A stretch of DNA of 64,000 nt from Cladosporium halotolerans (lineage: Eukaryota). Under the pieces are notes generated by a model. That model was not told where the DNA came from. It made no database searches and was given only the letters and a program-made list of their open reading frames with translations. Position 1 is the stretch's first letter; each line of letters opens with the position of its first letter. Below, in pieces: positions 37,571 to 59,892 of this stretch. The stretch lies in the NCBI RefSeq assembly GCF_011745625.1, contig NW_027191457.1:372001-436000 (forward strand), read 5' to 3'. The position numbers and the translations under genes were made by a program.

Positions 37571-40234
37571 ATGCCGGCGCGCGCGGCTGACTTGGACGCG
37601 GCCTTGCAAAAGAAGGGCGGCCTGACGCTGTCGCAACTCGCAAACTACGATGATTTGATCACCGATGCTCTAGTCGATCGAGTGAGCGCTGCCGTGTCTT
37701 ATATGTTGTGGTCCTAGACCGAAACTGACCAGCCTTGCCAGGTATATTTTTGGGCATCGATTCGCAAGCTGAAGCCCAACTTCCACGCCTCCCGCGGTAT
37801 CCAAGAAGAGGCCGTGTGTAAGATCCTACAACGAGATGTCATCATCGACAAAGACGCCACGCTGGCGCATCGCAACCTGCTCCGCCTCCCCGGCATCGCA
37901 AACTACCTCCGCAATCTCAGGACCCAGGATGAGAAGGAACACTTTGAGCGCCACTTGCGCAAGTATATCAACATGTATCTCCCGGAGTGCCCCTTCGAAG
38001 TATGCACGACAAACCGCTACACGATCTTGACCCACGAGGCGTGCGTCGTCGCGCGCCGCCCGATCAAGCAGGGCGAATCGATCCGCTTCTTGAGCGGCAT
38101 CCAGGTGGAAATGACGGAGAAAGAGGAGGAGGAGCTTTCCAGCAGGACGGATTTCAGCATCGTTATTTCCAGCCGGCGCAAACGCCCGAGCCTCTTCCTC
38201 GGACCGGCGCGTTTCGCAAACCACGACTGCGACTCCAACGCGCGCCTTTCGACCAGCGGACCGCATGGGATACACATTGTTGCACGGAAGAGCATCGCGG
38301 TTGGAGAAGAGATCACAGTGCAGTATGGAGACAACTACTTTGGCGAGGACAACTGCGAGTGCCTTTGCGCCTCGTGCGAAAAGGCGGTCAGGAACGGTTG
38401 GGACCCCAGGGGCCCGATCTTGCACGAGAGCGACAGTGATAGCGACGAAGAATCGGAGACGAAAGAGGGAGATTCGTCTTCCCGCTGGCCTCCACCTCGA
38501 GCAAACAAGAAATCGACTTCAACACCTACGTCTCTCAAGAGGAAGCGAGGAGTGAAAGAGGAACCGCAGGAGAGCGAATCGCCAAAGAAGCGCGGTCGCG
38601 CCGCAGTGAAAAAATCTGCCGTGACTGGCAAGTTTACGAAAGCTTCGGCAGCAGGGAAAGAATCGCGAAAGAGCACGACAGTATCGCAAGAAATAATGGC
38701 TGAGTGGTTCGCAAAAAGGTTCAACGGCGAGCCAACAAAGGAGGAAGCGAACGAGAAAGCGTTGAATGATTTTCAGAAGCAACTCGAAGACGTCGAGTCA
38801 ACTGCTCCCGAGAAACGGGGTGGTTTCGAACAAATGATGGGTATCATGACAGCGGCTGCTTCGCGAAAAATCAACAAATTGGACGCGGAAATTGCGAAGA
38901 TGAACGCCGAAAGTGCATATCTCATGCAAATCGACGTGGCGGACCTGCCGCGGCGTTGCGACCAGAAAGCGCCACAGAATCAGCCCGCCATCAAGACCGA
39001 GGACTACGATTCCCAGGATGCACTAAGCGGAGCTTCCGCGTATGACCCTATGGACGTCGGTGAAGCTGCTGGCGACCTTACGGAATCACCGACCATTGAT
39101 GTCACGGGTTGGTTTACTCATTCTGCAACAGAATTTCCTGAGAGATTTATCAAGAATCGCGATCAACTATCACCAAACAAGCAGAAGAAGGGGAGGTCTT
39201 CAAAAGTCACGGACAAGTTCGCTCAATCAAAGCTTTTGCGAACACCGTTGAAACAAGAGCGAAGTCACTCCAACTTACGGAATGTATTGAACGCGGATGA
39301 CGATGCCGCAAGCGACATCTTCGAGATACCCGAGTCGCCTCCACCAGCAGACCCGCCCAAGCGTTCTCGCGGACGACCAAGGAAATACCCCCGGAAAGCA
39401 GCTCCTCGAGATGAGTCCAGCCATCTAGTCGAAACTACCCACAACTCAACAGACTCCAGCTCCATGTCATCTATCTTCAGCACCGAAGGCCTCGCCGGTG
39501 AGGCCTCTTCGCTATCATCTACCGACCAGTCACCCAACCGCCTCGATGGCTTCTCCGCCGGCAACATCTGCCAGAACATCGTCGAGATGTACACCACCGA
39601 GCCCTCGCCCGAAGAAACCAACTGGGAAGAAGAGCGCAAGATGAGCACGGAGCGCCTGCAAGACTGGTCGCGCGGGCGCCTGCCCGTGCGCAAGAGCAGC
39701 CGCCGCGCCCTCGCCATCACCAGCATCGAAAACCCCCCCTCGCGCGCCGGCGCCTCGCGCTCCGCCTCCGCCTCCTCCACCCAGACCAAGCGCGGCGAAC
39801 CCCGCACCCCCGGCGACTACCACCTGACGACCACGCTCCTCGCGACCCCGTACCACCGCTGGGTCGAGTGCCGCAACTGCGACGAGTTCTTCGTGCAGGC
39901 CGAGGCCTACCTGACGCGCATCGCCTGCCCGCGCTGCGAGCGCCACAGCAAGTTGTACGGCTACTACTGGCCCAAGACGGACCGCGAGGGCCGCTGGGAC
40001 AACGAGGAGAGGGTGCTGGATCACCGCACGATTCATCGCTTTATCGACGCCGAGGACGAGAGGCTGGAGAGGAAGGGCAAGAGGGGGCTTGCGGAGGTTA
40101 TTAGGGAGAGGGAGACTTCGTCGCGGGCGAGTGAGGGGAGGGGGGAGAGGTTGAGGGGCAGTCCGGCTGGTGGGGCCGGTGGGGGTGGTGGTGGGGATGG
40201 GAGGAGGAGGAGTGCGAGGAGGTCGATGATGTAG
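37571..40234 (+). CDS. SET9: Histone H4K20 methyltransferase Set9; intron 37682-37741
   Basis: YDDLITDALVDR|VYFW; SET core LFLGPARFANHDC..GEEITVQYGDNYFG..CLCASC; AT-hook RGRPRK; C-terminal CRNC..CPRCERHSKLYG. Confidence 0.93.
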
Positions 40235-41487: not shown

Positions 41488-42743
41488 CTACAGTATTCCC
41501 GGACAGTGCGGGCGCGGTTTCCTCGCAATGTCTCTCCCCATACCAACAGTGTCCACAATCATCTTTTTCTTCGCTGAACCTCCGTCAATACTAGTGCAGT
41601 AGAGCTGAGGACTTGTGTGAGCTTCAGATCTTAGGTCCCTCGTTTTGTGCCAAGTGAACACCGGCTCGGCATTCGGCAAGGAGATAATGAAGGGATTCTG
41701 AAAGTCGATTGAATGTTCGTCCATCGCTTTCGCGTCTTCGGGGGTGCGGCATACTTGCTTGTGGCGACGGTAGTCCTCGCGCTGGCACATAGTGTTGCAG
41801 TAGATTTGATCCTTGCAACGATCGCAAACCAGAGCCTTGACGGGTTCAATACCGCAGCCACCACACACCTTCTCATTGGGGCCGTATCCCATCTGTGCCT
41901 TCATGATAGGGCTGACGATAGAGTCATGACACTTGTCGGTTTCGACCAAGATAGCGTAGTCTTGATACACACCTCCCACCATTCCACCGACGTGCGCATC
42001 CGGCTGGACGTCGAACACATTTTCCAGCGGGCGAGCGTAGTTGGCAAAGTCGATGGGAGTCCCAGGTTGGAAGCCACCGTTCTTGTTAAGCGCTGTAGCC
42101 ATCTGCACTCTTGCGCCATACACGAGAGGAGCGAATGGTAGAACGCCGAGCATCATGTCCTTGAATGTTGGGAAGAGCTGTTTGAAGCCTGGACTGGTGT
42201 GAAGGGTCGAGCAACCAAGACTCATCGCACAAGCCCCGAGGATGACGGGCATATAGCCATGACAGGTGTAATCGGAGGCCGCAATTGGGTTGAAGAAGTT
42301 GGCGACCAGCTTACGCACAAGCTTGTGCAGCACACCAGAGTCGAGATGATCGCGGACCTTCTGTGCCGCTTCAAGGTTCGAGCAGTTGCCTGCGTACACA
42401 GAGTAGGTGACGTCCTCGGCTCCAGGGGGCATGTTTGCTTGTGGGTAATTGATGCCGTCCTTGGTAGCGGGATCGGTCGACATGTCGCCGTCTTCTGTGG
42501 CAGACGGCTCAGTCACCTTGAGCTGGGCAATGCCATCTGAGATGGTGGAAAACTGAGTTGCTTTGAGTTGAACAACGCCGGCAAGCTCGTCGAGGTAAGC
42601 CACAGCAACCATGGCACCATCATTCTCCTGGTCCAGTGTTAGCATGTACACAATCGGCAGACCAAACGCCTGCTTATGGACTGTTCACTCACAAAGACTC
42701 CCTCGCCCCACACTCTACCTTTTGTAGGTGATATGAACGGCAT
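41488..42743 (-). CDS. MYND zinc-finger protein (short first exon MPFISPTKGRVWGEGVF, then an intron)
   Basis: CGGC..CDRC..YCNTMCQREDYRRHKQVC; GTGAGT..CTAAC..CAG intron at about 42630-42692. 3' end uncertain. Confidence 0.75.
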
Positions 42744-43897: not shown

Positions 43898-44159
43898 TGC
43901 TGTGAAATTGGTGTTTGCGAATGAGTGTCTAGCGCTGTGAAACTGGCAACGAGCGTGTCTGGCAGACTTGGTATGAGGCGGTTGGCGGCTTTGATGGTGT
44001 TGAGATGATGGAATGCGCAGGGTTGGTCTGTGTACAGTAGGTATCCTAAGATGCGGGTGAAGCATGTGAGCGGCTGACGTCGCGGTCGCGCCGCGAGGCG
44101 TGGAGAGGCCAATTTGTAGTAGTATATCATTTTTACAAAATACAGCGCCAACAAGATCT

Positions 44160-44233
44160 GGTCGATTAGCTCAGTTGGTTAGAGCGTGGTGCTAATAACG
44201 CCAAGGTCGCGAGTTCGACCCTCGTATTGACCA
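44160..44233 (+). tRNA. tRNA-Ile(AAU), intronless
   Basis: Acceptor stem GGTCGAT/ATTGACC; D arm GCTC..GAGC; anticodon arm TGGTG-CTAATAA-CGCCA; T loop TTCGACC; T-runs downstream. Confidence 0.96.
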
Positions 44234-45053
44234 TATTCTTTTGCCATTTTTTTGGTCAGGATTTCGATGGGGAAATGCAGGGCTGTATCGACCCTTGGTA
44301 GACCTCGCTTCGAGACGAAGTCAATGTGATGGGCGAACATGTGAAGGCTTCAACCCCTGCAGGTGAGCATGCGGCGGGTTAGAGGCAACGATTTGGCGGC
44401 GCCGGTGGGCTGGCTCTGCCTGGCTTTCCTTTCATGTGCCCGCGCCACAAACAGCGTCATGCCACTTTCACATGCCTCCGCACCGCAGCCTAGACGAAGA
44501 TTTCACCTTGCCTCGCTTTTGCACCACTGAACGCTGTTTCACTGCCCAAACATCCCGCGTTGGATCGCTCGTCTGCTGTCGGCTCGCAAGGTTCTCCCAC
44601 GTGCAATTTACGGATCCGGCTGAATACATCCCGCATTTCCACACACTCAGAAACATCGCCGTCTGCCGGTCAACTTTCCGCCGCCGCCCTTTTCCCAGGA
44701 GTGGACACGGACGGCTCTCACCACAAAATTGATTGCCGGCCGGCTGTGCACGCACATTGATTAAAACACCCACTTTCCCCGTCCTCGGAGAAGAACAAGT
44801 GTTCGGGCGGTCTTCCACCGCTGGCCTAAGCACTAGCGCTAGCAGCAGTAGCGACTCCAGCAGCCAACGCCCGGACGGACGCATATCTGAAGACAATTCC
44901 CGCGAGGCTTGTTATTCATCCGAATCTCCTTTGCTTCGACTGCTTGATTTGAAGATCCGACATCCAGCGTACCTGGCTCTCGACTCTTGAAATTATCAGA
45001 TCCGTCTGATTGCTTCCTCTTTGAATCTTAACCGGGGTGCATGAGCGGTGACG

Positions 45054-46733: not shown

Positions 46734-48296
46734 CTACCTTCTCCTCCCACCACCACCACCGCCACCGCCTCTCCTCCGTCCACCTCCACCGTGCCCCGCA
46801 CCACCGCCCGCCCCGCGATCCCTTCCAAACCCACCGAAATCAACTCCACCATCGACAACCACATCTCCATCCTCGAACGTATACCGCCTCAGCTGATCCA
46901 ACGCCGTGCCAAGCGGTTTCTGCCGCCCGCCGTCCCAGTCGCGGCTTGTTTCGCGATCCAGCTCGTCGAGTCGCTTATCAACCAGAGCGGGCGAGACGGG
47001 CTGGTAGAAGAGTTTCGGCTGCGCTTGCGTGCAGGGGAAGTGCGCGAGCGCGGTGGGAGAGTAAGGCGGTTTGCGCGGATGCATCGGCGCAGCAGGGCGC
47101 GAGTTGCGAGGGCCCGTCGGGGCGTTGGGCATGCCGGGGCCGGGCACCGGCGTGGCAGTGCTGACGCTGCCGGGTGCCGTGGCCTGGGGCACTCCTTCGA
47201 GCGTGGCGAGGGTTTCGCCGGCGGGAGAGGTGGAGTAGACGACTTCGAAGCGCTTGGATTTGCCCGCGTCCTGCTCCGTCGCGATCCAGTCATGCGTCTG
47301 CGCGGGCGGAATGAAGTCGACCCAGAGCGGTTTGCGCTGGCTTTCGTCGGGCCAGATGCGGTCGTGCAGGCCGGCACGCGCGCGGGCGGCGGCCGAGGTG
47401 GAGGTGAAGATGACGAAGGCGTGCGATTTGAAGGTGTCCAGGTGGATTGTGTCGATGAGCGAGTCGTCTATGGGTTCTTGTGGGGGAGTTGCTAGGTTGA
47501 GGAGGTGGTCGCGGAAGGGTGGGAGTTGGAGGGGTCGGAGGAGGTTGCGAATGTAGAGCGCGGAGGTTGGAGGGTGTTGTGAGGGAGGACCGGTCTCGTC
47601 TGAGGCTGTGTCCATTGCCATTGGCTCAGTAGAAGCTGGCCGCTCCTCTGAAACATCCTGTGCTGATTTCTCTGCCGACTTTTCGATGTCCTCGTCCTTC
47701 ACTTCTTCCTGGCCGCTGACATCCATCACATCGTCGCTAACCGCAGTAGGTTGTATGGTTTCTTTTGCTGATTCCTCGACTGGTGCAGGCGCCTCCTTTG
47801 GTAAGTCTTCTTGCAAAGTTGGCACTTCTTCTTCGTCTGCCGCTCTGAGCTTCTTCTGAACGGAGTCTGAGCTGATGGGAGGCGTAGGGCTTCTGCGCTT
47901 CCTTTTGCGACTGTCGGTCTGGTCGTCGGCAGTTGGTGACGCTGCCTGAGGCGTGATGGTTTCCGCGGGCAGCGCGTCTTCCTTCGCGGGTGCAACAGGT
48001 TGGTCTGCCGGTACGTCGTGACTCTCCGATTGTTGCACGGCATCATTAGAAGGCGCATCGTTCGCGGGAGTCGCGTCTTCGCCATTCTGATCGTCGCCAT
48101 TGTTCGGTGCGCTCGAAGCGTCCTCCTCCGCCTTTGTGTCCTCATTATTTCCAACTTCGTCGCCGCTTTTTTGCGCGTCTTGCGCCTCCAGTGCTTCGAT
48201 ATATTGCTGTTTCCTGGTGAGGCCTGTGGAAGGGATGCCGCGCTCCTTCAGCAGGTCCTTGAGCTCGGCGGCCTTAAGGCCATTGTAGTCGGCCAT
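46734..48296 (-). CDS. Acinus-like protein (SAP domain + RRM + RSB-like motif)
   Basis: SAP LKAAELKDLLKERGIPSTG; RRM ALYIRNLLRP..SHAFV..LHDRIWP..PLWVDF; FPCTQAQPKLFYQP; Gly/Arg-rich tail. Confidence 0.85.
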   Translation of the reverse strand: MADYNGLKAAELKDLLKERGIPSTGLTRKQQYIEALEAQDAQKSGDEVGNNEDTKAEEDASSAPNNGDDQNGEDATPANDAPSNDAVQQSESHDVPADQPVAPAKEDALPAETITPQAASPTADDQTDSRKRKRRSPTPPISSDSVQKKLRAADEEEVPTLQEDLPKEAPAPVEESAKETIQPTAVSDDVMDVSGQEEVKDEDIEKSAEKSAQDVSEERPASTEPMAMDTASDETGPPSQHPPTSALYIRNLLRPLQLPPFRDHLLNLATPPQEPIDDSLIDTIHLDTFKSHAFVIFTSTSAAARARAGLHDRIWPDESQRKPLWVDFIPPAQTHDWIATEQDAGKSKRFEVVYSTSPAGETLATLEGVPQATAPGSVSTATPVPGPGMPNAPTGPRNSRPAAPMHPRKPPYSPTALAHFPCTQAQPKLFYQPVSPALVDKRLDELDRETSRDWDGGRQKPLGTALDQLRRYTFEDGDVVVDGGVDFGGFGRDRGAGGGAGHGGGGRRRGGGGGGGGRRR

Positions 48297-48811: not shown

Positions 48812-50076
48812 ATGAGTAAAATGTGGGAGGTTGACCCGGAGACCCGGTCAAAACTAGGCGAAATCGCAAAGACGAACGAGAACAACCGCTGCATCGACTG
48901 CGGCGCCCCGAGTCCCCAATGGGTACGTCTCGTCTGGCCTCGAATGGCAAGAATCACATGAGCACCCGCTAACGCCCGCCTCACTTCCAGGCCTCACCCA
49001 AACTCGGCATCTTCTTCTGCCTCGCCTGCTCCGGCATCCACCGCTCGCTGGGCGTGCACATCTCCTTCGTCCGATCCGTCACCATGGACGCCTTCAAGCT
49101 CGCCGAAGTCAAGCGCATGGAGCTCGGCGGCAATAAGCCCTTCAAGACCTTCTTCGACGAACACACCTCTAACACCGCCATCGGCCGCGTCTTCGACGAC
49201 TGTACCATCGCCGAGCGATACGACTCCGACGCCGGCGAGGAGTGGAAGGAGCGCCTGACTTGTAAGGTTGAGGAGAGGGAGTACGTGCCCGGCGCGACAA
49301 AGAAGGAGCCTCCGGCGAAAAAGGCCGCCGCTGGCGAAATCCCTACCCCAGGCGGAGGATCAGGCAGGAACACACCTTCGGCGCAAGGATTCGGGCCGGA
49401 GTCTCAAAAGGCGAAGAACGAAGCCTACTTCGCCTCGAAAGGCGCGGAGAACGCTTCTCGGCCTGAGGGCCTCGCGCCCTCGCAAGGCGGCAAATACGCG
49501 GGCTTCGGCTCCTCGCCCGCCCCCTCCAGCAACAACACAGACGAGTTCGGCGCGCCGACGACAGACGACTTCCAGCGCGACCCCGTCGCGGCGCTGACGA
49601 AGGGCTTCGGCTGGCTGGGCAGCAGCTTCGCCAAGCAGGCCGCGAGCGTTAACAAGGCCTACATCCAGCCGGGCATGGCGAACCTGAACTCCGGCGACTT
49701 CGCCGCTCAGGCGAAGCAGTTCGGCACAAACCTCGGCTCCGGCCTGCAGCACACGTCGCGCGGCTTGAATGATCAATTCAACAGGTTTGTCGACCCGGAG
49801 CACAGCGGCGCGGGCGGCGCGGGTGGGAGCAGGTCGGCGGTGGCGCCGGAGAAGAAGGATTTCTGGGACTCGTTTGGCGCGGACCCCGCGGGGCCGCCGA
49901 AGGAGAAGAAGGACTTTTGGGATGATTTTGCGGCGGCGGGAGAGGCGAAGGCGGCGCAGCAGCAACCGAAGCCGAGGAACGTGGGCACGAGTGCGATGAA
50001 GAACGCGGGTTCGTCGGGGGCTGGCGGACCGTCGGCGTCGAAGAAGGATGACGATGGTGGGTGGGGAGATTGGTGA
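48812..50076 (+). CDS. GCS1: ArfGAP (Gcs1/ArfGAP1 type); intron 48923-48990
   Basis: CIDCGAPSPQW|ASPKLGIFFCLACSGIHRSLGVHISFVRSVTMD; GGKYAGFG; DFWD repeats; C-terminal WGDW. Confidence 0.92.
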
Positions 50077-50582
50077 TCGGTTTCTAGATTTCTATAGAGA
50101 TGAGGAGCAGGAGGCTGGCGTGGCATTTTTGGCATTCGCCTGGGCGGCATTTCGAAGCATACGAGCGGGTCGAGGAGCGTTTGTCATGAGCAAGAGGGTA
50201 TGTTTCATTGATTCCATCGAATTGACGACTACATATGAACGGTCGCTACGTCGATCTTTACGCAAGCTTATCTTCTTCCCATTATACCGGTAGCGGCTGC
50301 GTGGTGGACATTCATACGCGTGGCTTTCGGGTCTCGTGCCATTGACCCTGCCCAGTCTGTAGTGGCTGCATTCACTTACATCTTGCCATTGCAATCATGT
50401 CTGCGCTCGCAGCCCTCGGTCGGAACGTCTCAGTCCATGCCGAGGAAAGTCAGAGGGTTTCTAACCTCACTTCACCCCCACGCCCAGCCCTTCACCCCCC
50501 ACGTAATCACGTGCCATGTTTTTCACATATATATTTTTGCGCAGTTGCCTATGACATAACCAGAAGCATGAGTAGGCGATTC

Positions 50583-50768
50583 GGTCATGTGGCGCAGTGG
50601 GAAGCACTATGACGGAGACCCCCCGGGGTCGGCCTCGCCAGTCATCGAGGACTGCTGATCTGGCACACCCACCGAAAGCAAAATCCGCCTTAACACCGCA
50701 GGTTTTCTTGACACCCCCCGAACGAGATGGGGTGGTTCTTTTGCCGGGTTCGAATCCTGTGCACGGCA
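50583..50768 (+). ncRNA. Putative Pol III tRNA-like structured RNA with enlarged anticodon and variable arms
   Basis: A box TGGCGCAGTGG (50590-50600), B box GGTTCGAATCC (50747-50757), TTTTT at 50773-50777, and several internal helices; no valid anticodon loop. Confidence 0.6.
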
Positions 50769-50946
50769 ATTGTTTTTGCTGGTGTAGTGCGATGCTGTGT
50801 TTCACGTGACGGTTATGAATTGGCACCACCACAACCACCCATCTCTCCCTTGCAATCAGTAGCCGAGACGTGCTGTGTTAGAATGGTCCATACCTCTGCG
50901 TAGCATTCTGCATCAATCTGCGCAATATCTCAACAAACCGCATATC

Positions 50947-52437
50947 TCACGAGCTCCCCCACCAAGGCATCTCAGTACTTCCCAGCTGCCCCGTACCACC
51001 CTTCGCCGCTGTCTCCATCGCGCTTTGCTGCAGCAACTCGAAAAGACTCTGCTCTCGTATTTGCTGCTGAGGGAACTGCGCAGGCGTAAAAGGCACCACC
51101 GGGCTTTGAGCCATAAACTCATGCAATGGGGCGTCATCGCCGTGCTTCCTCTTCGAACCCCGCATACGCCCCGACCCCAGCGGCCTGCCCGGCCCTGCGC
51201 CCCGAGCTCGTGGCCTCGTAGTGCCTCGAGGCACAGATGGGCGATTGGTCTCTCGCGGGCGGTTGTGCGCGGGTTTGGGATGGATGGCGATGTGCTTGTA
51301 CTGCACGATGATGACGCCAGCCGTGGTGGAGAACTTGACTGACACGGAGCCCTTGCAGTCGTAGGACTGTTTGATCTTGCGCAGGGGCGCGATGGACGGC
51401 ACGTGGGCCATGCGGTCCTTGTTCTGGAGGCTGTCTCGGCAGATGTATGAGAAGCGCAGGCTGTTGTCGTCGACGCGGCTGCTCCACGCGTTGTTGAACT
51501 GGTAGCGGAAGCCGTCGTGCGCGCTGATGCGCTCGAGGAGGCCGCGCGAGGCGGCGCGCTGGACGATGGAGCGAATCTTCTCCGAGGAGATGTTGAGGAT
51601 TGTCGAGACGAGGGCATTGGGGCAGGTTTTGAAGGGGTCGGTTGTGGAGGAAGGCGCGGAGGGACTGGATTGGGCGGGGGATTGTGTGATCTCGGTCTCG
51701 CCTTCTTGGGCTGATGAATGGTCGCGCTCCTGGGTGGATTGCGTAGCTTCGCCGGGATTGTTGTGAGGCTGTGACGGCGATTCCAATTGAGATTCGTCTT
51801 CGTCCCTGACCTGGCCAGCCCCTGCCTCCGTTCCGCCATTCTCGAGCTGATTTCGTTTGAACTCATCCGGTAGATCCTGATGGCCACCCTCCGAATACGG
51901 TCCAAAACTAGGTCTCATGAGCGGAACGAGCGCATTCCCTCCCAGCGTGTATTCCGAGCTCGTGCAGTTTGCGACCTCATCAGTAAAGCTGGCGTCAATG
52001 TCGGCCTTCAACTGCGCAATCATGTCTTCCACGTCTGTGAGTGGCTCGACGTCGCTAGACCCGTGCGCCATCCTATTCCTCTTCCTGTTCGACGCATGCG
52101 GAGTCTCTTGGATTTCTTGTGCAGGCGATTCATGTTGCTGGTACGCATCAGAGCGGACGTAAGAAGGCGCGTCGTAGTGGAATGTGTTTGTGTAAGAGTT
52201 GTAGCCGCTGAATGATGTTTGCGACGCGTACGGAGATTGATCGGAGGGCGATGCCTGCGGGTTGTTCATGGAGGATGTCGCGCCATTGGATGTGTAGTAA
52301 GGCGAGTCAACAACGCCCGGCCACGCTTGCCCATGCTGTTGTTCGTCGGATTGGTGTTGTCCGACTCCATAGTATGAATTGCTGGTCGGTGTGACCAGTT
52401 GGGGATTCTGACTCGGTACCAGGACGCCGTGCGACAT
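50947..52437 (-). CDS. Hypothetical nuclear protein with WRKY/GCM1-like (FAR1/MULE-type) zinc domain
   Basis: 496-aa ORF; GFRYQF..RFSYICRDS..YDCKGSVSVKF..VQYKHIAIH; basic patches RKRNR and KRKH. Confidence 0.65.
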   Translation of the reverse strand: MSHGVLVPSQNPQLVTPTSNSYYGVGQHQSDEQQHGQAWPGVVDSPYYTSNGATSSMNNPQASPSDQSPYASQTSFSGYNSYTNTFHYDAPSYVRSDAYQQHESPAQEIQETPHASNRKRNRMAHGSSDVEPLTDVEDMIAQLKADIDASFTDEVANCTSSEYTLGGNALVPLMRPSFGPYSEGGHQDLPDEFKRNQLENGGTEAGAGQVRDEDESQLESPSQPHNNPGEATQSTQERDHSSAQEGETEITQSPAQSSPSAPSSTTDPFKTCPNALVSTILNISSEKIRSIVQRAASRGLLERISAHDGFRYQFNNAWSSRVDDNSLRFSYICRDSLQNKDRMAHVPSIAPLRKIKQSYDCKGSVSVKFSTTAGVIIVQYKHIAIHPKPAHNRPRETNRPSVPRGTTRPRARGAGPGRPLGSGRMRGSKRKHGDDAPLHEFMAQSPVVPFTPAQFPQQQIREQSLFELLQQSAMETAAKGGTGQLGSTEMPWWGSS

Positions 52438-54949: not shown

Positions 54950-55951
54950 ATGGCGAAAGGCAAGCAAGATGCAGCCTCCCTGCTCACATGTGAGGCGGAG
55001 ACGCGTCGTCCTTTCATTCACCATCTCAACGCGGACACCTCATGGCTCATCCAGATCCCACGGAATGACGACCACCCTCGCCCATACTTCAATCTCCTAA
55101 TTGACCCGTGGCTGACCACCTCTCAAATTGAATTCTCCCGCTTCTTCCACGAACAAGCCCACACCGTCCCCTCCGCCTTCCAAACCATCGCCGAAATCGA
55201 ATCCTTCATCCAAGCCATCGAAAATCGCGCCTGCACCCTCCAAAACACCCCTGCACCCTCGGAACCCCCAGACAGCTATATCGACGCCGTAGCCTGCAGC
55301 CTCAGCCTCACAGACCATGTCCACGAACCCACGCTCCGCCAACTTCACCCTTCCGTCCCGCTGCTCGTCCGCGAAGACGCCCTCTATGTCAAAAAATGGA
55401 ACCACTTCACCACCATCGCCGCCATCCCACCCTTCCAACGCTCCTGGCAAACCACCCTCCTCCCCTCCCTCCCCTCCTGGCTCGGCATCGGCAGCCTAAC
55501 CATGACCAAAGACCTGCAAGGCATCCATAAAGGCCTTGTCGTCTCCTTCTCCGGCACGCGCCACCCAACCGCCGAAGCGATCGTCTACATGCCGCACGGC
55601 ATCCCCGCGGAGCAAATGGACTTCTTACGCGAACGAGACCCGCCACTGCGCGTGCTGGCGCTGCTGCATGGCCTGCTGAATGTGAAAGTGGGATTGTCTT
55701 GGCTCGGGTACAGCGATGCGAACCTGGGCGCGCACAACGGGCTGAAATTGCAGCGGCTGCTCGAAGCGGAGTACTGGGCGGGCACGCACGATGAGATGAA
55801 AGTTGAGAAGGGTTTTACGTCGTGGATTCTGACGCAGAATCCGATTTCGTTGGAGGAGGCGCTGGAGAGGGAGAGGGAGGAGTGTGGGCAGGAATTGGCG
55901 AGGCCGAATTGGAGGGATGTGGGAAATGGAGGGAGTTTGGTTTTGGTTTGA
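54950..55951 (+). CDS. Fungal metallo-beta-lactamase-fold-like protein
   Basis: HLNADTSWL, LLIDPWL, TDHVHEPTL, YMPHG, NLGAHNG and YWAGTHDE motifs. Confidence 0.7.
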   Translation: MAKGKQDAASLLTCEAETRRPFIHHLNADTSWLIQIPRNDDHPRPYFNLLIDPWLTTSQIEFSRFFHEQAHTVPSAFQTIAEIESFIQAIENRACTLQNTPAPSEPPDSYIDAVACSLSLTDHVHEPTLRQLHPSVPLLVREDALYVKKWNHFTTIAAIPPFQRSWQTTLLPSLPSWLGIGSLTMTKDLQGIHKGLVVSFSGTRHPTAEAIVYMPHGIPAEQMDFLRERDPPLRVLALLHGLLNVKVGLSWLGYSDANLGAHNGLKLQRLLEAEYWAGTHDEMKVEKGFTSWILTQNPISLEEALEREREECGQELARPNWRDVGNGGSLVLV

Positions 55952-56526: not shown

Positions 56527-59500
56527 TTAGTCGGTACCACCATTCGCGTCAGCTTCGCCTGCGTTGGCAGCAGCGATGGCATCAACATCTTCTGTCTCGA
56601 CGCCATGCGTGTTGACGACGATGCGACGGCCACGCTGAGTGGCGGAAACTCCGTCACGACTCGCACCGAAGTCAAGGACCTGTTACATCTGTTAGTCACA
56701 CCCAAAGCGTGGAATGTTAGACGTGCTTACCTCAATGTACGTAAGATTATTACGTTGCACAGCGGCAACACAACGGCGCTCATCAAAGCGAACCTGCCAC
56801 ACCCCCGAAAGGTCTGTCAAAAGGTCACGAACGCATTCTCCATTGCGTACGTTCCACATCTTGAGCGTACGATCAGAGCCAGAGATAACCTTTTGACCGT
56901 CGTGCTGAAAGCAGGTGATTGCACCGGTGTGCGCACTAAGCGTCGCCTTGCAAGCACCGCTCTCGGGGTCCCAGATGCGGAGAGTACTATCTGCCGCTGC
57001 GGAGACCAGGCGATCATGGCTGAGATCAAGCAGGCCGACGAGTGATGTGTGACCCTCAAGGTTGAACAGACAAGAGCCCGTGTCGAGATCCCAGACTTTG
57101 ACGAGGTTATCCATGCTGCCTGATATGCAGCGATTACGGGCATGGTCAAGAACGACCGAGTAGACCTTCTGAGCGTGTCCCTGAAGGCGATGCTGGAGAT
57201 CGCCCGTGGAGATTTTCCAAACTCTCACGGTGCAGTCGTATGAACCTGAGATGAGAGTGTCGCCATGGGCAGCGATGGCACGCACGCTGTTATGGTGGCC
57301 GCTGAGCGTTCGGATGAAATAGGGGTTGTCGCGATCATTAGCCGGGGGGCCTGCCTGGATAATGCTTCTGTCACCCGGCCTCGGCAACTTCCAAACACGA
57401 AGGGTTGAGTCACGGGAGCCGGTGATGATGAGGGGCTCTTTGGGCATCATGATGGGAGTGCCATCGGCGGCAGTATCGACCTGTACAGGCTTGAGGATCT
57501 CCAAGCAACGGACCGTCGAGGTGTGGCCCTGGAAGACTTGAAGGCACCGGCCAGACTTAATATCCCATACCCGAACGCTGCGATCGGTCGAGCCAGAAAC
57601 CAAAGTATCGCCCTCATATTGCAGGGCCCAGACACCGCCCTCGTGGCCTTCAAGCCTTCTTCTCAAGGCTCCAGTCTTGGTGTCGTACACGTTGATCTTG
57701 GTGTCATCACTTCCCGTCAAGATTTTGTCATCGTCGAATAGCAAGCATGTGACGACGTGGCGATGGTGTGCTCTGAAAGCCAGATGCTGCGGTTGGCTAT
57801 CTTCCATCATCCAAGCCTTGCGTATCAAGTAGTGGCGCTGGTATAAAGATTTGAACAGGTGCATGCCACGGAGGGATTCAACTCCTATGGTGGGGTAGGG
57901 AATTGCTTGCGTGGCCGCATTCGCTAATGCAGTCGGGCCCTTGGCCAGTGCCATCAATTTCTTCCATATCGGTGGGTCTCGCTGTGTTCTAGTTGTGGAA
58001 CCGGACGATCTCGAGGTGCGCTTTGCTTTCTTTTGGCTCGGATGCCGGTGTGAATGCTTGCGCTTTGTCCTCGTCACGGCGGAGGAGGTAGTCTCATCGT
58101 CTTCGCTGTCGTTATCTCCATGCACATGGCTGAGATCGTCTTCGCAACCGTCTTCGCCCGGGTGTTGCCATCCCCAACCCTCTTTCACGGCTCTTGCAAC
58201 TTCGCCTTCAGGTAGTACAAATTCATCACGCTCCAGGAGATCCTTCCATGCACGTTCGTCAGAGTTGATGAGCCTACGCCAGCGCTTCGATACCTGTGCA
58301 GCACGGCACATACTCCGGGAGTCCAGATAGCGAGTGATGTTGAGGCCAAGCTCAGGCGGTAAAACGTTGAAAGGGTCGCATTTGAGGGCAGGGTTGACCA
58401 CATTTGCGACCATTTGCAGTGTCGGCTTCGGGCATCTCCGGAGGAACTGATACATCACATATGACTGCAGAGCTTCCGGCATGCTGTCAAATGCGTCTAC
58501 CATCGTAGGAATATCCATGACTGTTGGGCCCGAGTTTTTGGGCACCTGATGCTGTGTGCTAGCTTCGAGATGTCCAACGGAAGCAGATGGATCTAAGGAG
58601 CTGGCGCTTTGTGTCTTGCTGTCATCATCAAGGTCTATGCTTGATTCAACGCTCGAAAGCCCTTCGTTGTGCCTAGCGAACGACGCTTCGAAGGCGTTCT
58701 GGCGAGAAGCTAAAGTGGCGGCAGCAGTGATTGGCGAGAGACTCGGACTGGGAAGGCTGGCATCTTGCTGTGAGCTCGTGAGAATGTTAGGCAAGTTCGG
58801 CCTACGAATGCCTGCATCTTCGGTGCGATCAGGGTCGACCTCCAAGTCAGCGTCGGCTACGGGCGGTGTAGCCGCTGCACCGGCCGTCGCGCTGGCTTCA
58901 ACGAAGCCGCGCTGAGCTTTGTTATTCTTCACAGCAAATGGCGGACCCAGCTGAGAGTCGTCCTCTTGAAGTTCTTCATCGCCAGCATTGTCCTCCTCAT
59001 TGTCTTGTAGCTCTCGCAACCTTGATTGAGGAATCCTTCCGGGGCTTCTCCTCCTCTTGCCTTCCTGACGACTCGAGCTCGCTCTCGGCGGCAGCATCTC
59101 GACGAATCCAACATCGGTGTCAGGCGTTACCGGTGAGGGATTGCTGGGCTCAGGGAATGCTCCAGAAGCTGCACGCTGATTGAGTGAAGGTACCTCTTGC
59201 ATCTCAGACTGAGTTCGGTGAAGTTGCGAGCGCGGCTTCTTGACCCTCCTCTGCAGACTTGCGAGCTCGGCCGCCTCTGCTATAGACGGAGGAGTTGCAG
59301 TACGCTTGGGAGCATCTGATGCCCGAACATTGTGCACGTTCTTGTGGACCCGCGATTGCTCCGGTCCACGTGTCGGAGTCTCATATGCCTTTTCCCTTGC
59401 CTCTCCGTATGTCAAAGAACCGTTGTGCCTCTGCATCTTCGCCTGTAGTCTTCGGTGTTGCTTCATGGTCTCCTCAGCATCTTCCGCCTCGTGAAACGTT

Positions 59501-59892
59501 GTTGGCCGGCCATGAACATCGAAGCAGAACCGCTTGATCGAGCGCGGAGTCGGTGTGAATACAAGAGGATATTGCTTTGGGTCTCTTTCCATAAGATCCT
59601 TGGGTGGGTTCATTATCAGTGGAGGCAGAGATACGGTAGTCATGGTGGTCGTCGTCACAACAGTCTGCTGGGTTGCTGGGCCGAAGCACATGGCGGCTAC
59701 TGTGGAGTTTGGAGGCGCCATGTTAGGCATCGTGGTGGTAGGTGTGCTGTCTTGAGGTTGAGATGTCGGTTGCTTGGAGTGCGGCATGGCTCCTGTGGGT
59801 GACGCTGGAGCGGTAGAGAGGACGCCGTCGGCAGCGAGCGCGGTCGGCACTTTCACATGGAGCCCTAAGCCGAGGCTTTTGGGCGTATCCAT
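56527..59892 (-). CDS. CDC4: F-box/WD40 SCF substrate receptor Cdc4; intron 56680-56730
   Basis: F-box LPPELGLNITRYLD..AAQVSKRW; WD40 series (GHEGGVWAL, GHTSTVRCL, GHTSLVGLL); last exon VLDFGASRDG. Confidence 0.92.

Follow-up and report, generated by a model that had tools for sequence, protein, structure and literature searches.

The window, meaning the whole 64-kb stretch of DNA that was analysed, carries ordinary eukaryotic genes and a tRNA-shaped unit that does not appear to decode. The unit is found in a spacer of 870 nucleotides that extends from the stop codon of GCS1 (50076) to the stop codon of a convergent ORF (50947-52437, minus strand). The ORF on the GCS1 side (49084-50076) corresponds to the C-terminal part of an ArfGAP protein, and its best named relatives come from Cladosporium fusiforme (83% identity) and from the GCS1 proteins of many Capnodiales. 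These relatives place the window in a Cladosporium-type ascomycete and bear out the location downstream of GCS1 that the first-pass annotation had given for the unit. No Pfam family was found for the ORFs 49084-50076, 50947-52437 and 54950-55951, each of which was read from a single ORF. The principal features of the window are as follows.

37973-40234, plus strand: SET-domain protein (Pfam on long ORF; ordinary eukaryotic gene)
41488-42645, minus strand: MYND-finger protein (Pfam on long ORF; ordinary eukaryotic gene)
46734-48296, minus strand: SAP-domain protein (Pfam on long ORF; ordinary eukaryotic gene)
50583-50777, plus strand: the unit, tRNA-shaped and non-decoding, with the anticodon loop replaced and the variable region swollen by large inserts
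50947-52437, minus strand: convergent ORF of 496 residues, with no Pfam family when read as a single ORF
56692-59892, minus strand: F-box plus WD40 protein (Pfam on long ORF; ordinary eukaryotic gene)

Every sequence feature named in the first-pass annotation was found again at its position. These include an A box at a tRNA-like +8 position, a D-arm-like GCGC/GCAC pairing, a perfect B box within a T-arm-like hairpin, a T5 run as terminator and an imperfect pairing of the two ends, wherein 6 of 7 positions pair between GTCATGT (50584-90) and GCACGGC (50761-67). The parts of the unit and of its immediate surroundings can be listed in order.

50527-50534, plus strand: TATA-like element located about 50 nt upstream of the tRNA-like 5' end; putative TFIIIB site
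50540-50780, plus strand: repeated family unit, as delimited by matches to other contigs from the same organism
50584-50590, plus strand: 5' acceptor-like strand GTCATGT; ARAGORN frames in the deletion scan described below start at 50584
50590-50600, plus strand: A box TGGCGCAGTGG, located by pattern search
50592-50607, plus strand: D-arm-like hairpin GCGC-AGTGGGAA-GCAC, with one C-A mismatch
50609-50645, plus strand: anticodon-position arm, in which ATGAC/GTCAT closes a 27-nt insert holding a GACCC/GGGTC hairpin
50646-50744, plus strand: insert of about 99 nt at the variable position, which includes local hairpins at 50676-50709 and 50712-50734; the part most common to paralogues
50739-50742, plus strand: internal T4 within TTCTTTTGCC, 5 nt ahead of the B box, where Pol III might stop early
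50745-50759, plus strand: T-arm-like hairpin, holding a perfect B box GGTTCGAATCC at 50747-50757
50761-50767, plus strand: 3' acceptor-like strand GCACGGC, which pairs with GTCATGT
50773-50777, plus strand: T5 run that is probably the principal Pol III terminator, 16 nt downstream of the B box

There is only one match to the B-box pattern on both strands of the 64-kb window, where 0.21 matches are expected, and there are three matches to the A-box pattern, where 0.99 are expected. The two boxes are 147 nucleotides apart, close to the spacing given earlier, and they form the only site in the window where both boxes lie on one strand within 160 nucleotides before a T run. Thus, the promoter-like layout is real and is more than a chance assembly. 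Pol III terminates at T runs, and the combination of A box, B box and following T run that is expected of a tRNA gene is present in the unit. Words comparable to the TATA-like element are located 31-43 nucleotides upstream of the tRNA-Ile gene of the window and of a tRNA-Asn gene in a related fungus (locus L002).

Palindromic CACGTG words, which resemble E boxes, are found on both sides of the unit, at 50507-50513 (about 75 nucleotides upstream) and at 50802-50809 (about 25 nucleotides downstream). The small flanking words, comprising 7-mers that contain CACGTG and the pair CATAACC/GGTTATG, were considered as terminal inverted repeats and were rejected because they do not occur in mirrored order.

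A tRNA frame with two insertions

At the gathering score, the sole Rfam match in the whole window is the tRNA-Ile(AAT) gene at 44160-44233, and nothing is matched at the unit. A permissive Rfam search of 50400-50950 with E values up to 10 returned two meaningless matches (E 8-9.5) and no tRNA, and Rfam 15 holds no family for the unit. Similarly, ARAGORN reported no gene at the unit, either with default settings or with introns allowed up to the 3000-nt limit. These results agree with the initial view that the unit is neither a canonical nor an intron-containing tRNA, and that it shows no hallmarks of SRP, RNase P/MRP or U6 RNA, for none of which the Rfam scans gave a match. Calls made by ARAGORN at relaxed thresholds ('Ser' at 50722-50806, as well as calls on the minus strand) were unconvincing.

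A tRNA frame emerges when part of the unit is taken away. Every internal stretch of 20-149 nucleotides between 50600 and 50750 was removed in silico, and ARAGORN called a tRNA in 186 of the resulting 8775 variants. There are 163 calls that represent one and the same frame, almost all of them listed as starting at 50584. This frame appears upon removal of 72-97 nucleotides inside 50648-50745 and has the anticodon CGC. It still needs a 20-nt insert after position 31, where the 5' strand of the anticodon stem ends, and it carries a C at position 37. The acceptance of a frame by ARAGORN once the variable-position insert is removed sustains the earlier proposal that the unit is derived from a tRNA, and the frame of the unit (ends, D arm, anticodon stem and T arm) is that of a tRNA.

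The CGC frame, obtained in 163 of 8775 variants, could be taken to indicate a working tRNA gene with one or more exceptionally long introns, and the tRNA genes that relatives carry at the same site do have introns of 10-11 nucleotides (Cys) or 41-43 nucleotides (Asn). However, such a gene would have to lose two separate stretches, the first following the 5' strand of the anticodon stem and the second within the variable region, and neither of them is located at 37/38, which is the site used by nuclear tRNA splicing. Two insertions at sites that this splicing does not use effectively rule out a working tRNA. The anticodon-position arm lacks a 7-nt loop with U33 and the putative loop has a C at position 37, such that the unit has neither the 7-base loop with U33 and purine 37 of a decoding tRNA nor an intron at 37/38. 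The failure of ARAGORN even with introns of up to 3000 nucleotides, and of the Rfam tRNA model even at E values up to 10, points in the same direction.

A C-rich word (GA/ACACCC[C/A]CCG, twice with AA after it) occurs three times inside the unit, at 50615-50625, 50665-50676 and 50711-50722, and the last two copies are 46 nucleotides apart. This recurrence suggests that the inserts grew by local duplication.

The fold that had been proposed for the unit stands only in its parts. All of the claimed helices consist of standard pairs, including ATGAC/GTCAT, GACCC/GGGTC, GAGGAC/GTTCTT, AAG-AAAATC/GGTTTT-CTT and CACCCC/GGGGTG, but the structure as a whole lacks thermodynamic support. Its energy is -34.2 kcal/mol, compared with a minimum free energy (MFE) of -55.1 kcal/mol for the same stretch, a difference of 21 kcal/mol, and its closing helices have pair probabilities of 0.00-0.27. 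The native MFE of -55.7 kcal/mol is also unremarkable beside that of shuffled sequences (-64.0 +/- 4.7; z +1.78), since 196 of 200 shuffles are at least as stable. Thus, the multibranch fold of the variable region is not upheld. The long hairpin at the anticodon position is retained in its inner GACCC/GGGTC helix (pair probability 0.85), but not in its outer ATGAC/GTCAT helix (0.01).

What the folding calculations favour instead are local hairpins, at 50617-50630 (0.85) and 50676-50709 (0.54-0.73), with lower values for the hairpin at 50712-50734 (0.24-0.31). In a 77-nt contig from a paralogue (depth 56.5, spanning 50643), a G-to-A change at 50611 breaks a G-C pair of ATGAC/GTCAT with no compensation. 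By a hand count, about 3 of 11 variable core positions are located in predicted stems, where about 3.8 are expected, and there is no depletion. Of the marks by which a generic structured RNA would be recognized, stability above that of shuffles was not found in the unit, and the one informative stem change in a paralogue is not compensated.

Copies in the genome and the same site in relatives

There are 24 public sequencing runs that match part of 50480-50860. The comparison of contigs draws on four of these and not on the other 20, many of which contain 0.31-0.36 of the sampled words. In one of them, an assembly-sized run from organism A (X1), there are 19 matching contigs, and those that carry the window's own flanks (records 1 and 7) have 0 differences. 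A further five contigs, 17.9-67.3 kb long (records 2, 4, 5, 6 and 8), align with parts of 50461-50780 and show 8-13 differences. The unit is therefore not an orphan, as diverged copies of it are present on five or more additional long contigs from this organism. The summed contig depth in this run rises from 31-62 in the flank to about 120-165 (50540-50635) and about 300 (50636-50755), and falls to 34 after 50780; this depth is not equal to copy number, and the count of contigs gives at least five other places, perhaps about 10. The 3' core at 50636-50757 is the part of the unit most common to the copies. High copy number with target-site duplications had been named beforehand as a sign of a SINE, and the contig comparison speaks to the first part of this sign, in that there are several copies.

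The paralogues are 88-93% alike over 50668-50757 (8-13 differences per 89-143 nucleotides) and become abruptly unlike before 50668 and after 50757, such that the divergence forms a mosaic. In one paralogue, the unlike 5' flank retains a 9-mer of the window (50646-54) between different letters, which by eye can again pair. The paralogues also differ in the 3' acceptor strand, a variation that is not expected of a working tRNA. Several copies have in common the 43 or so nucleotides that precede the tRNA-like start (from about 50540), and one copy matches from 50461. This shared upstream sequence fits duplication as DNA and not the copying of a transcript.

Another organism (E, run X12) has paralogue pieces of its own (records 10, 14 and 15), and in one of these (record 14) position 50744 is followed directly by a T run, with the B-box segment absent. 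The orthologue of the unit in organism E differs at 3 of 195 positions. The flank upstream of it differs at 13 of 237 (p = 0.039), and the comparison with both flanks gives p = 0.14. These counts are weak evidence at best that the orthologous unit may be under constraint.

A blastn search of the window together with the syntenic loci described below matched the unit only to itself, and there is no second copy in the 64-kb window. An exact 22-nt pattern, taken from the most conserved part, has 0 matches in collections of genome and viral contigs, both of which are poor in fungi, so that this result carries little weight. In those parts of the literature that were covered, no such element was found described for Cladosporium or Dothideomycetes.

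A scan of metagenome contigs with GCS1 alignment yielded 66 loci from Cladosporium-like and more distant fungi. Searches of these loci with blastn and nhmmer for 50560-50800 gave no match, the best alignment being 24 nucleotides long (E 0.74), and the B-box regular expression has 0 matches among them. The lack of a copy in the 66 syntenic loci indicates a family that is young or fast-evolving. In the Cladosporium-like loci that reach far enough past GCS1, the spacer holds ordinary intron-bearing tRNA genes.

L003 2321-2405, plus strand: tRNA-Cys(GCA), 10-11-nt intron
L004 3383-3466, plus strand: tRNA-Cys(GCA), 10-11-nt intron
L009 4184-4267, plus strand: tRNA-Cys(GCA), 10-11-nt intron
L010 3832-3915, plus strand: tRNA-Cys(GCA), 10-11-nt intron
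L002 5428-5543, minus strand: tRNA-Asn(GTT), 41-43-nt intron
L008 3286-3399, minus strand: tRNA-Asn(GTT), 41-43-nt intron

The occurrence of tRNA-Cys in four loci and of tRNA-Asn in two loci of relatives marks the spacer as a site of Pol III genes. The 496-residue downstream ORF is syntenic in three of the loci (L004, L009 and L010), with 39-42% identity. Judged from these sequence comparisons, the arrangement points to tRNA-gene turnover at one site downstream of GCS1. An alignment with the syntenic tRNA-Cys was considered as evidence of descent from that gene and was rejected as such. MAFFT placed the core at that gene, and the local alignment covers only 23 nucleotides, mostly of the T4-GC trailer, with a score that was reached by 8 of 300 shuffles.

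RNA evidence and possible transcript ends

One contig from an RNA library covers much of the unit.

50579-50713, strand not shown by the contig: stretch matched by an unspliced contig of 168 nt (run X19, record 17)

This contig has 1 difference from the window and a depth of 24.3, and it carries loose ends of 17 and 16 letters that we take to be the ends of Illumina adapters. It begins 11 nucleotides before the A box, where a Pol III start is expected. Across the anticodon-position insert and the greater part of the variable-position insert, as far as about 50712, the fragment follows the DNA without a break, and there are no joints in any run, which argues further against a tRNA with long introns. 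The flanks of the unit are without cover in this run. Stretches of the unit itself that lack cover in this run and in run X5 are no evidence of absence. X19 is a soil metatranscriptome, and the contig is a single one from a mixed sample in which DNA carry-over is possible; such a contig is no proof of the strand or the ends of a transcript.

There are two T runs at which transcription could end. The internal T4 is part of the 10-mer TTCTTTTGCC at 50736-45, which is identical to the 10-mer that follows the tRNA-Ile gene of the window and is there followed by T7 (44159-44255). The tRNA-Cys genes of two of the syntenic loci (L003 and L004) are likewise followed by T4-GC as their first T run, and Pol III may normally stop at such a trailer in these fungi. 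The paralogue piece of organism E from which the B-box segment is absent (record 14) fits a short form that ends at this site.

What the unit may be

We give roughly even odds (a probability of about 0.5) to the reading that the unit belongs to a small, lineage-specific family of Pol III units that are derived from a tRNA, do not decode, are transcribed, have been duplicated as DNA and carry the insert as payload. The family is perhaps confined to a single Cladosporium lineage and occupies five or more places per genome, perhaps about 10, and the unit probably makes a small non-coding RNA. The surviving parts of the tRNA (A box and D arm, B box and T arm, pairing ends and T run) would serve as promoter and end scaffold. 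A GC hairpin would take the place of the anticodon loop, and about 99 nucleotides would have been inserted at the position of the variable loop. From the arrangement of the boxes, we infer that TFIIIC binds both of them across the 147 nucleotides and places TFIIIB on the TATA-like upstream region.

Transcription by Pol III would then start a few bases before 50584, near 50579-50584. It would stop either at the internal T4 (50739-42), yielding an RNA of about 160 nucleotides, or at the T5 run (50773-77), yielding one of about 195 nucleotides. A stop at T4 would leave the B box downstream of the RNA, and read-through would carry the transcript on to its end at T5. The inserts are predicted to be kept in the RNA, and the inserted domain, rather than decoding, would be what the RNA contributes.

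A more ambitious version of this idea proposes about 10 Cladosporium-specific Pol III ncRNA genes built on a gutted tRNA scaffold. In this proposal, the conserved core and a paralogue-specific hairpin (the same loop word with different stems) would form the working part, and the genes would produce a set of RNAs with different targets or partners. The ends of the tRNA would supply promoter, processing signals and stability. Perhaps the RNAs come in two lengths that are set by read-through of the internal T4, with the B box outside the short form. We regard this proposal as speculative and probably incorrect in its full form.

If the units are indeed a family of ncRNA genes, they would represent a rare documented case from a filamentous fungus of tRNA genes rebuilt into longer Pol III RNAs. 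They would also offer a natural example of TFIIIC boxes 147 nucleotides apart with a possible terminator between them.

The unit shares much with nuclear tRNA genes (RF00005), including the A box at a +8-like position, the perfect B box in a T-arm-like hairpin, a D-arm-like hairpin that carries G18 and G19, pairing ends and a T-run terminator. It resembles the true tRNA genes nearby in its TATA-like upstream word and its T4-GC motif, and it occupies the same site downstream of GCS1 as the tRNA genes of relatives. Unlike a tRNA, it has no 7-nt anticodon loop, has about 20 nucleotides extra in the anticodon arm and about 99 at the variable position, and in the register of the end pairing has a single base between the acceptor and D stems. 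It also fails to match either Rfam or ARAGORN.

Among other Pol III RNAs, vault RNA resembles the unit in having an A box inside the gene, a B box far from it, and 5' and 3' ends that pair. The yeast gene SNR6 has its B box beyond the terminator, and a stop at the unit's T4 (50739-42) would similarly leave the B box downstream of the RNA. Yeast SCR1 is a Pol III type-2 ncRNA gene and belongs to the class with widely spaced or downstream B boxes. In contrast to all three, the unit is part of a multi-copy, lineage-restricted family with a predicted length of 160-195 nucleotides, and it has no sequence or Rfam match to any of them.

A different explanation is that the unit represents one copy of a retroelement, either a tRNA-derived SINE or some other non-autonomous kind. 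Such a family would spread by way of its Pol III transcript, relying on a LINE or LTR element, and its RNA would have no cellular role. SINEs of tRNA origin exist in fungi, as exemplified by MgSINE and Foxy, and the unit resembles such elements in its tRNA-inherited internal Pol III promoter and in its several diverged copies, which are scattered over five or more other long contigs and show 8-13 differences in about 100 nucleotides. However, SINE heads keep both boxes within about 70 nucleotides, whereas the A box of the unit is located at its 5' end and the B box follows 147 nucleotides later at its 3' end. There is also no A-rich, simple-repeat or LINE-like tail, and the unit ends in an acceptor-like strand and a terminator of its own. 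Thus, the suggestion of a 'SINE head' in the first-pass annotation fits poorly, as the B box is not part of a 70-nt head and no tail comes after it.

Two further observations could be read as traces of retroposition. More contigs contain the 3' part of the unit than the 5' part, which resembles 5' truncation, but the apparent loss consists of loose ends that are homologous and diverged rather than truncated. Likewise, the 7-mer TTTTTGC is present on both sides (50534-40 and 50773-79) and could be a target-site duplication, but it may not be one because it resembles an ordinary tRNA trailer of the same fungus. The upstream sequence common to the copies (50540-50583, and in one copy from 50461) is not expected of retroposed transcripts, and the copies seen are a handful, about 10, rather than hundreds.

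A known parallel among fungal retroelements is the Helenus group of TRIMs, whose LTRs harbour a tRNA-like sequence (Kojima 2024, PMC10886601). Helenus provides interspersed fungal tRNA-like sequences that, like the unit, have conserved A and B boxes and form no working tRNA, and its defining marks are a pair of LTRs with PBS and PPT, together with duplications of 5 bp (PMC10886601). It is reported from Pucciniales and some Agaricomycetes, that is from basidiomycetes only and not from ascomycetes (PMC10886601). The unit has no second copy in the 64-kb window with which it could form such an LTR pair, though it might be part of a solo LTR. On balance, we consider a retroelement copy to be unlikely. 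If the unit does prove to be a mobile or duplicating repeat, it would be mainly a matter of annotation, as a Pol III unit that tRNA finders and Rfam have missed, and it would provide a marker of tRNA-gene site turnover between Cladosporium species.

Slightly more doubtful is the explanation that the copies are decaying tRNA pseudogenes that arose by segmental duplication, in which slippage and internal duplication expanded two loops and the boxes are leftovers that give rise to spurious transcription at most. The mismatches in the acceptor, D and T stems, the missing anticodon loop and the repetition of the C-rich word at 50615, 50665 and 50711, which suggests local duplication, would all be natural in a pseudogene, as would the lack of a signal of fold stability. 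One paralogue change is uncompensated and one paralogue is without the B-box segment, as in a decaying repeat, and in more distant Cladosporium-like genomes the syntenic site holds normal tRNA genes in place of the unit. However, decay of this kind is difficult to reconcile with an A box, a B box and a terminator that are all perfect in the window copy, with the fragment in an RNA library, with an orthologue in a related organism that differs at only 3 of 195 places, and with a pattern of conservation among paralogues that is a mosaic and not uniform. A working tRNA gene with exceptionally long introns is very improbable, given the two removals it would require.

One minor point concerns the sequence just beyond the A box. 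Position 50601 is a G in the window and an A in every covering contig of the four runs compared, including the run from the same organism in which the flanks are identical. This discrepancy reflects either a difference between strains or an error in the assembly of the window, and with an A at this position the A box still fits the consensus.
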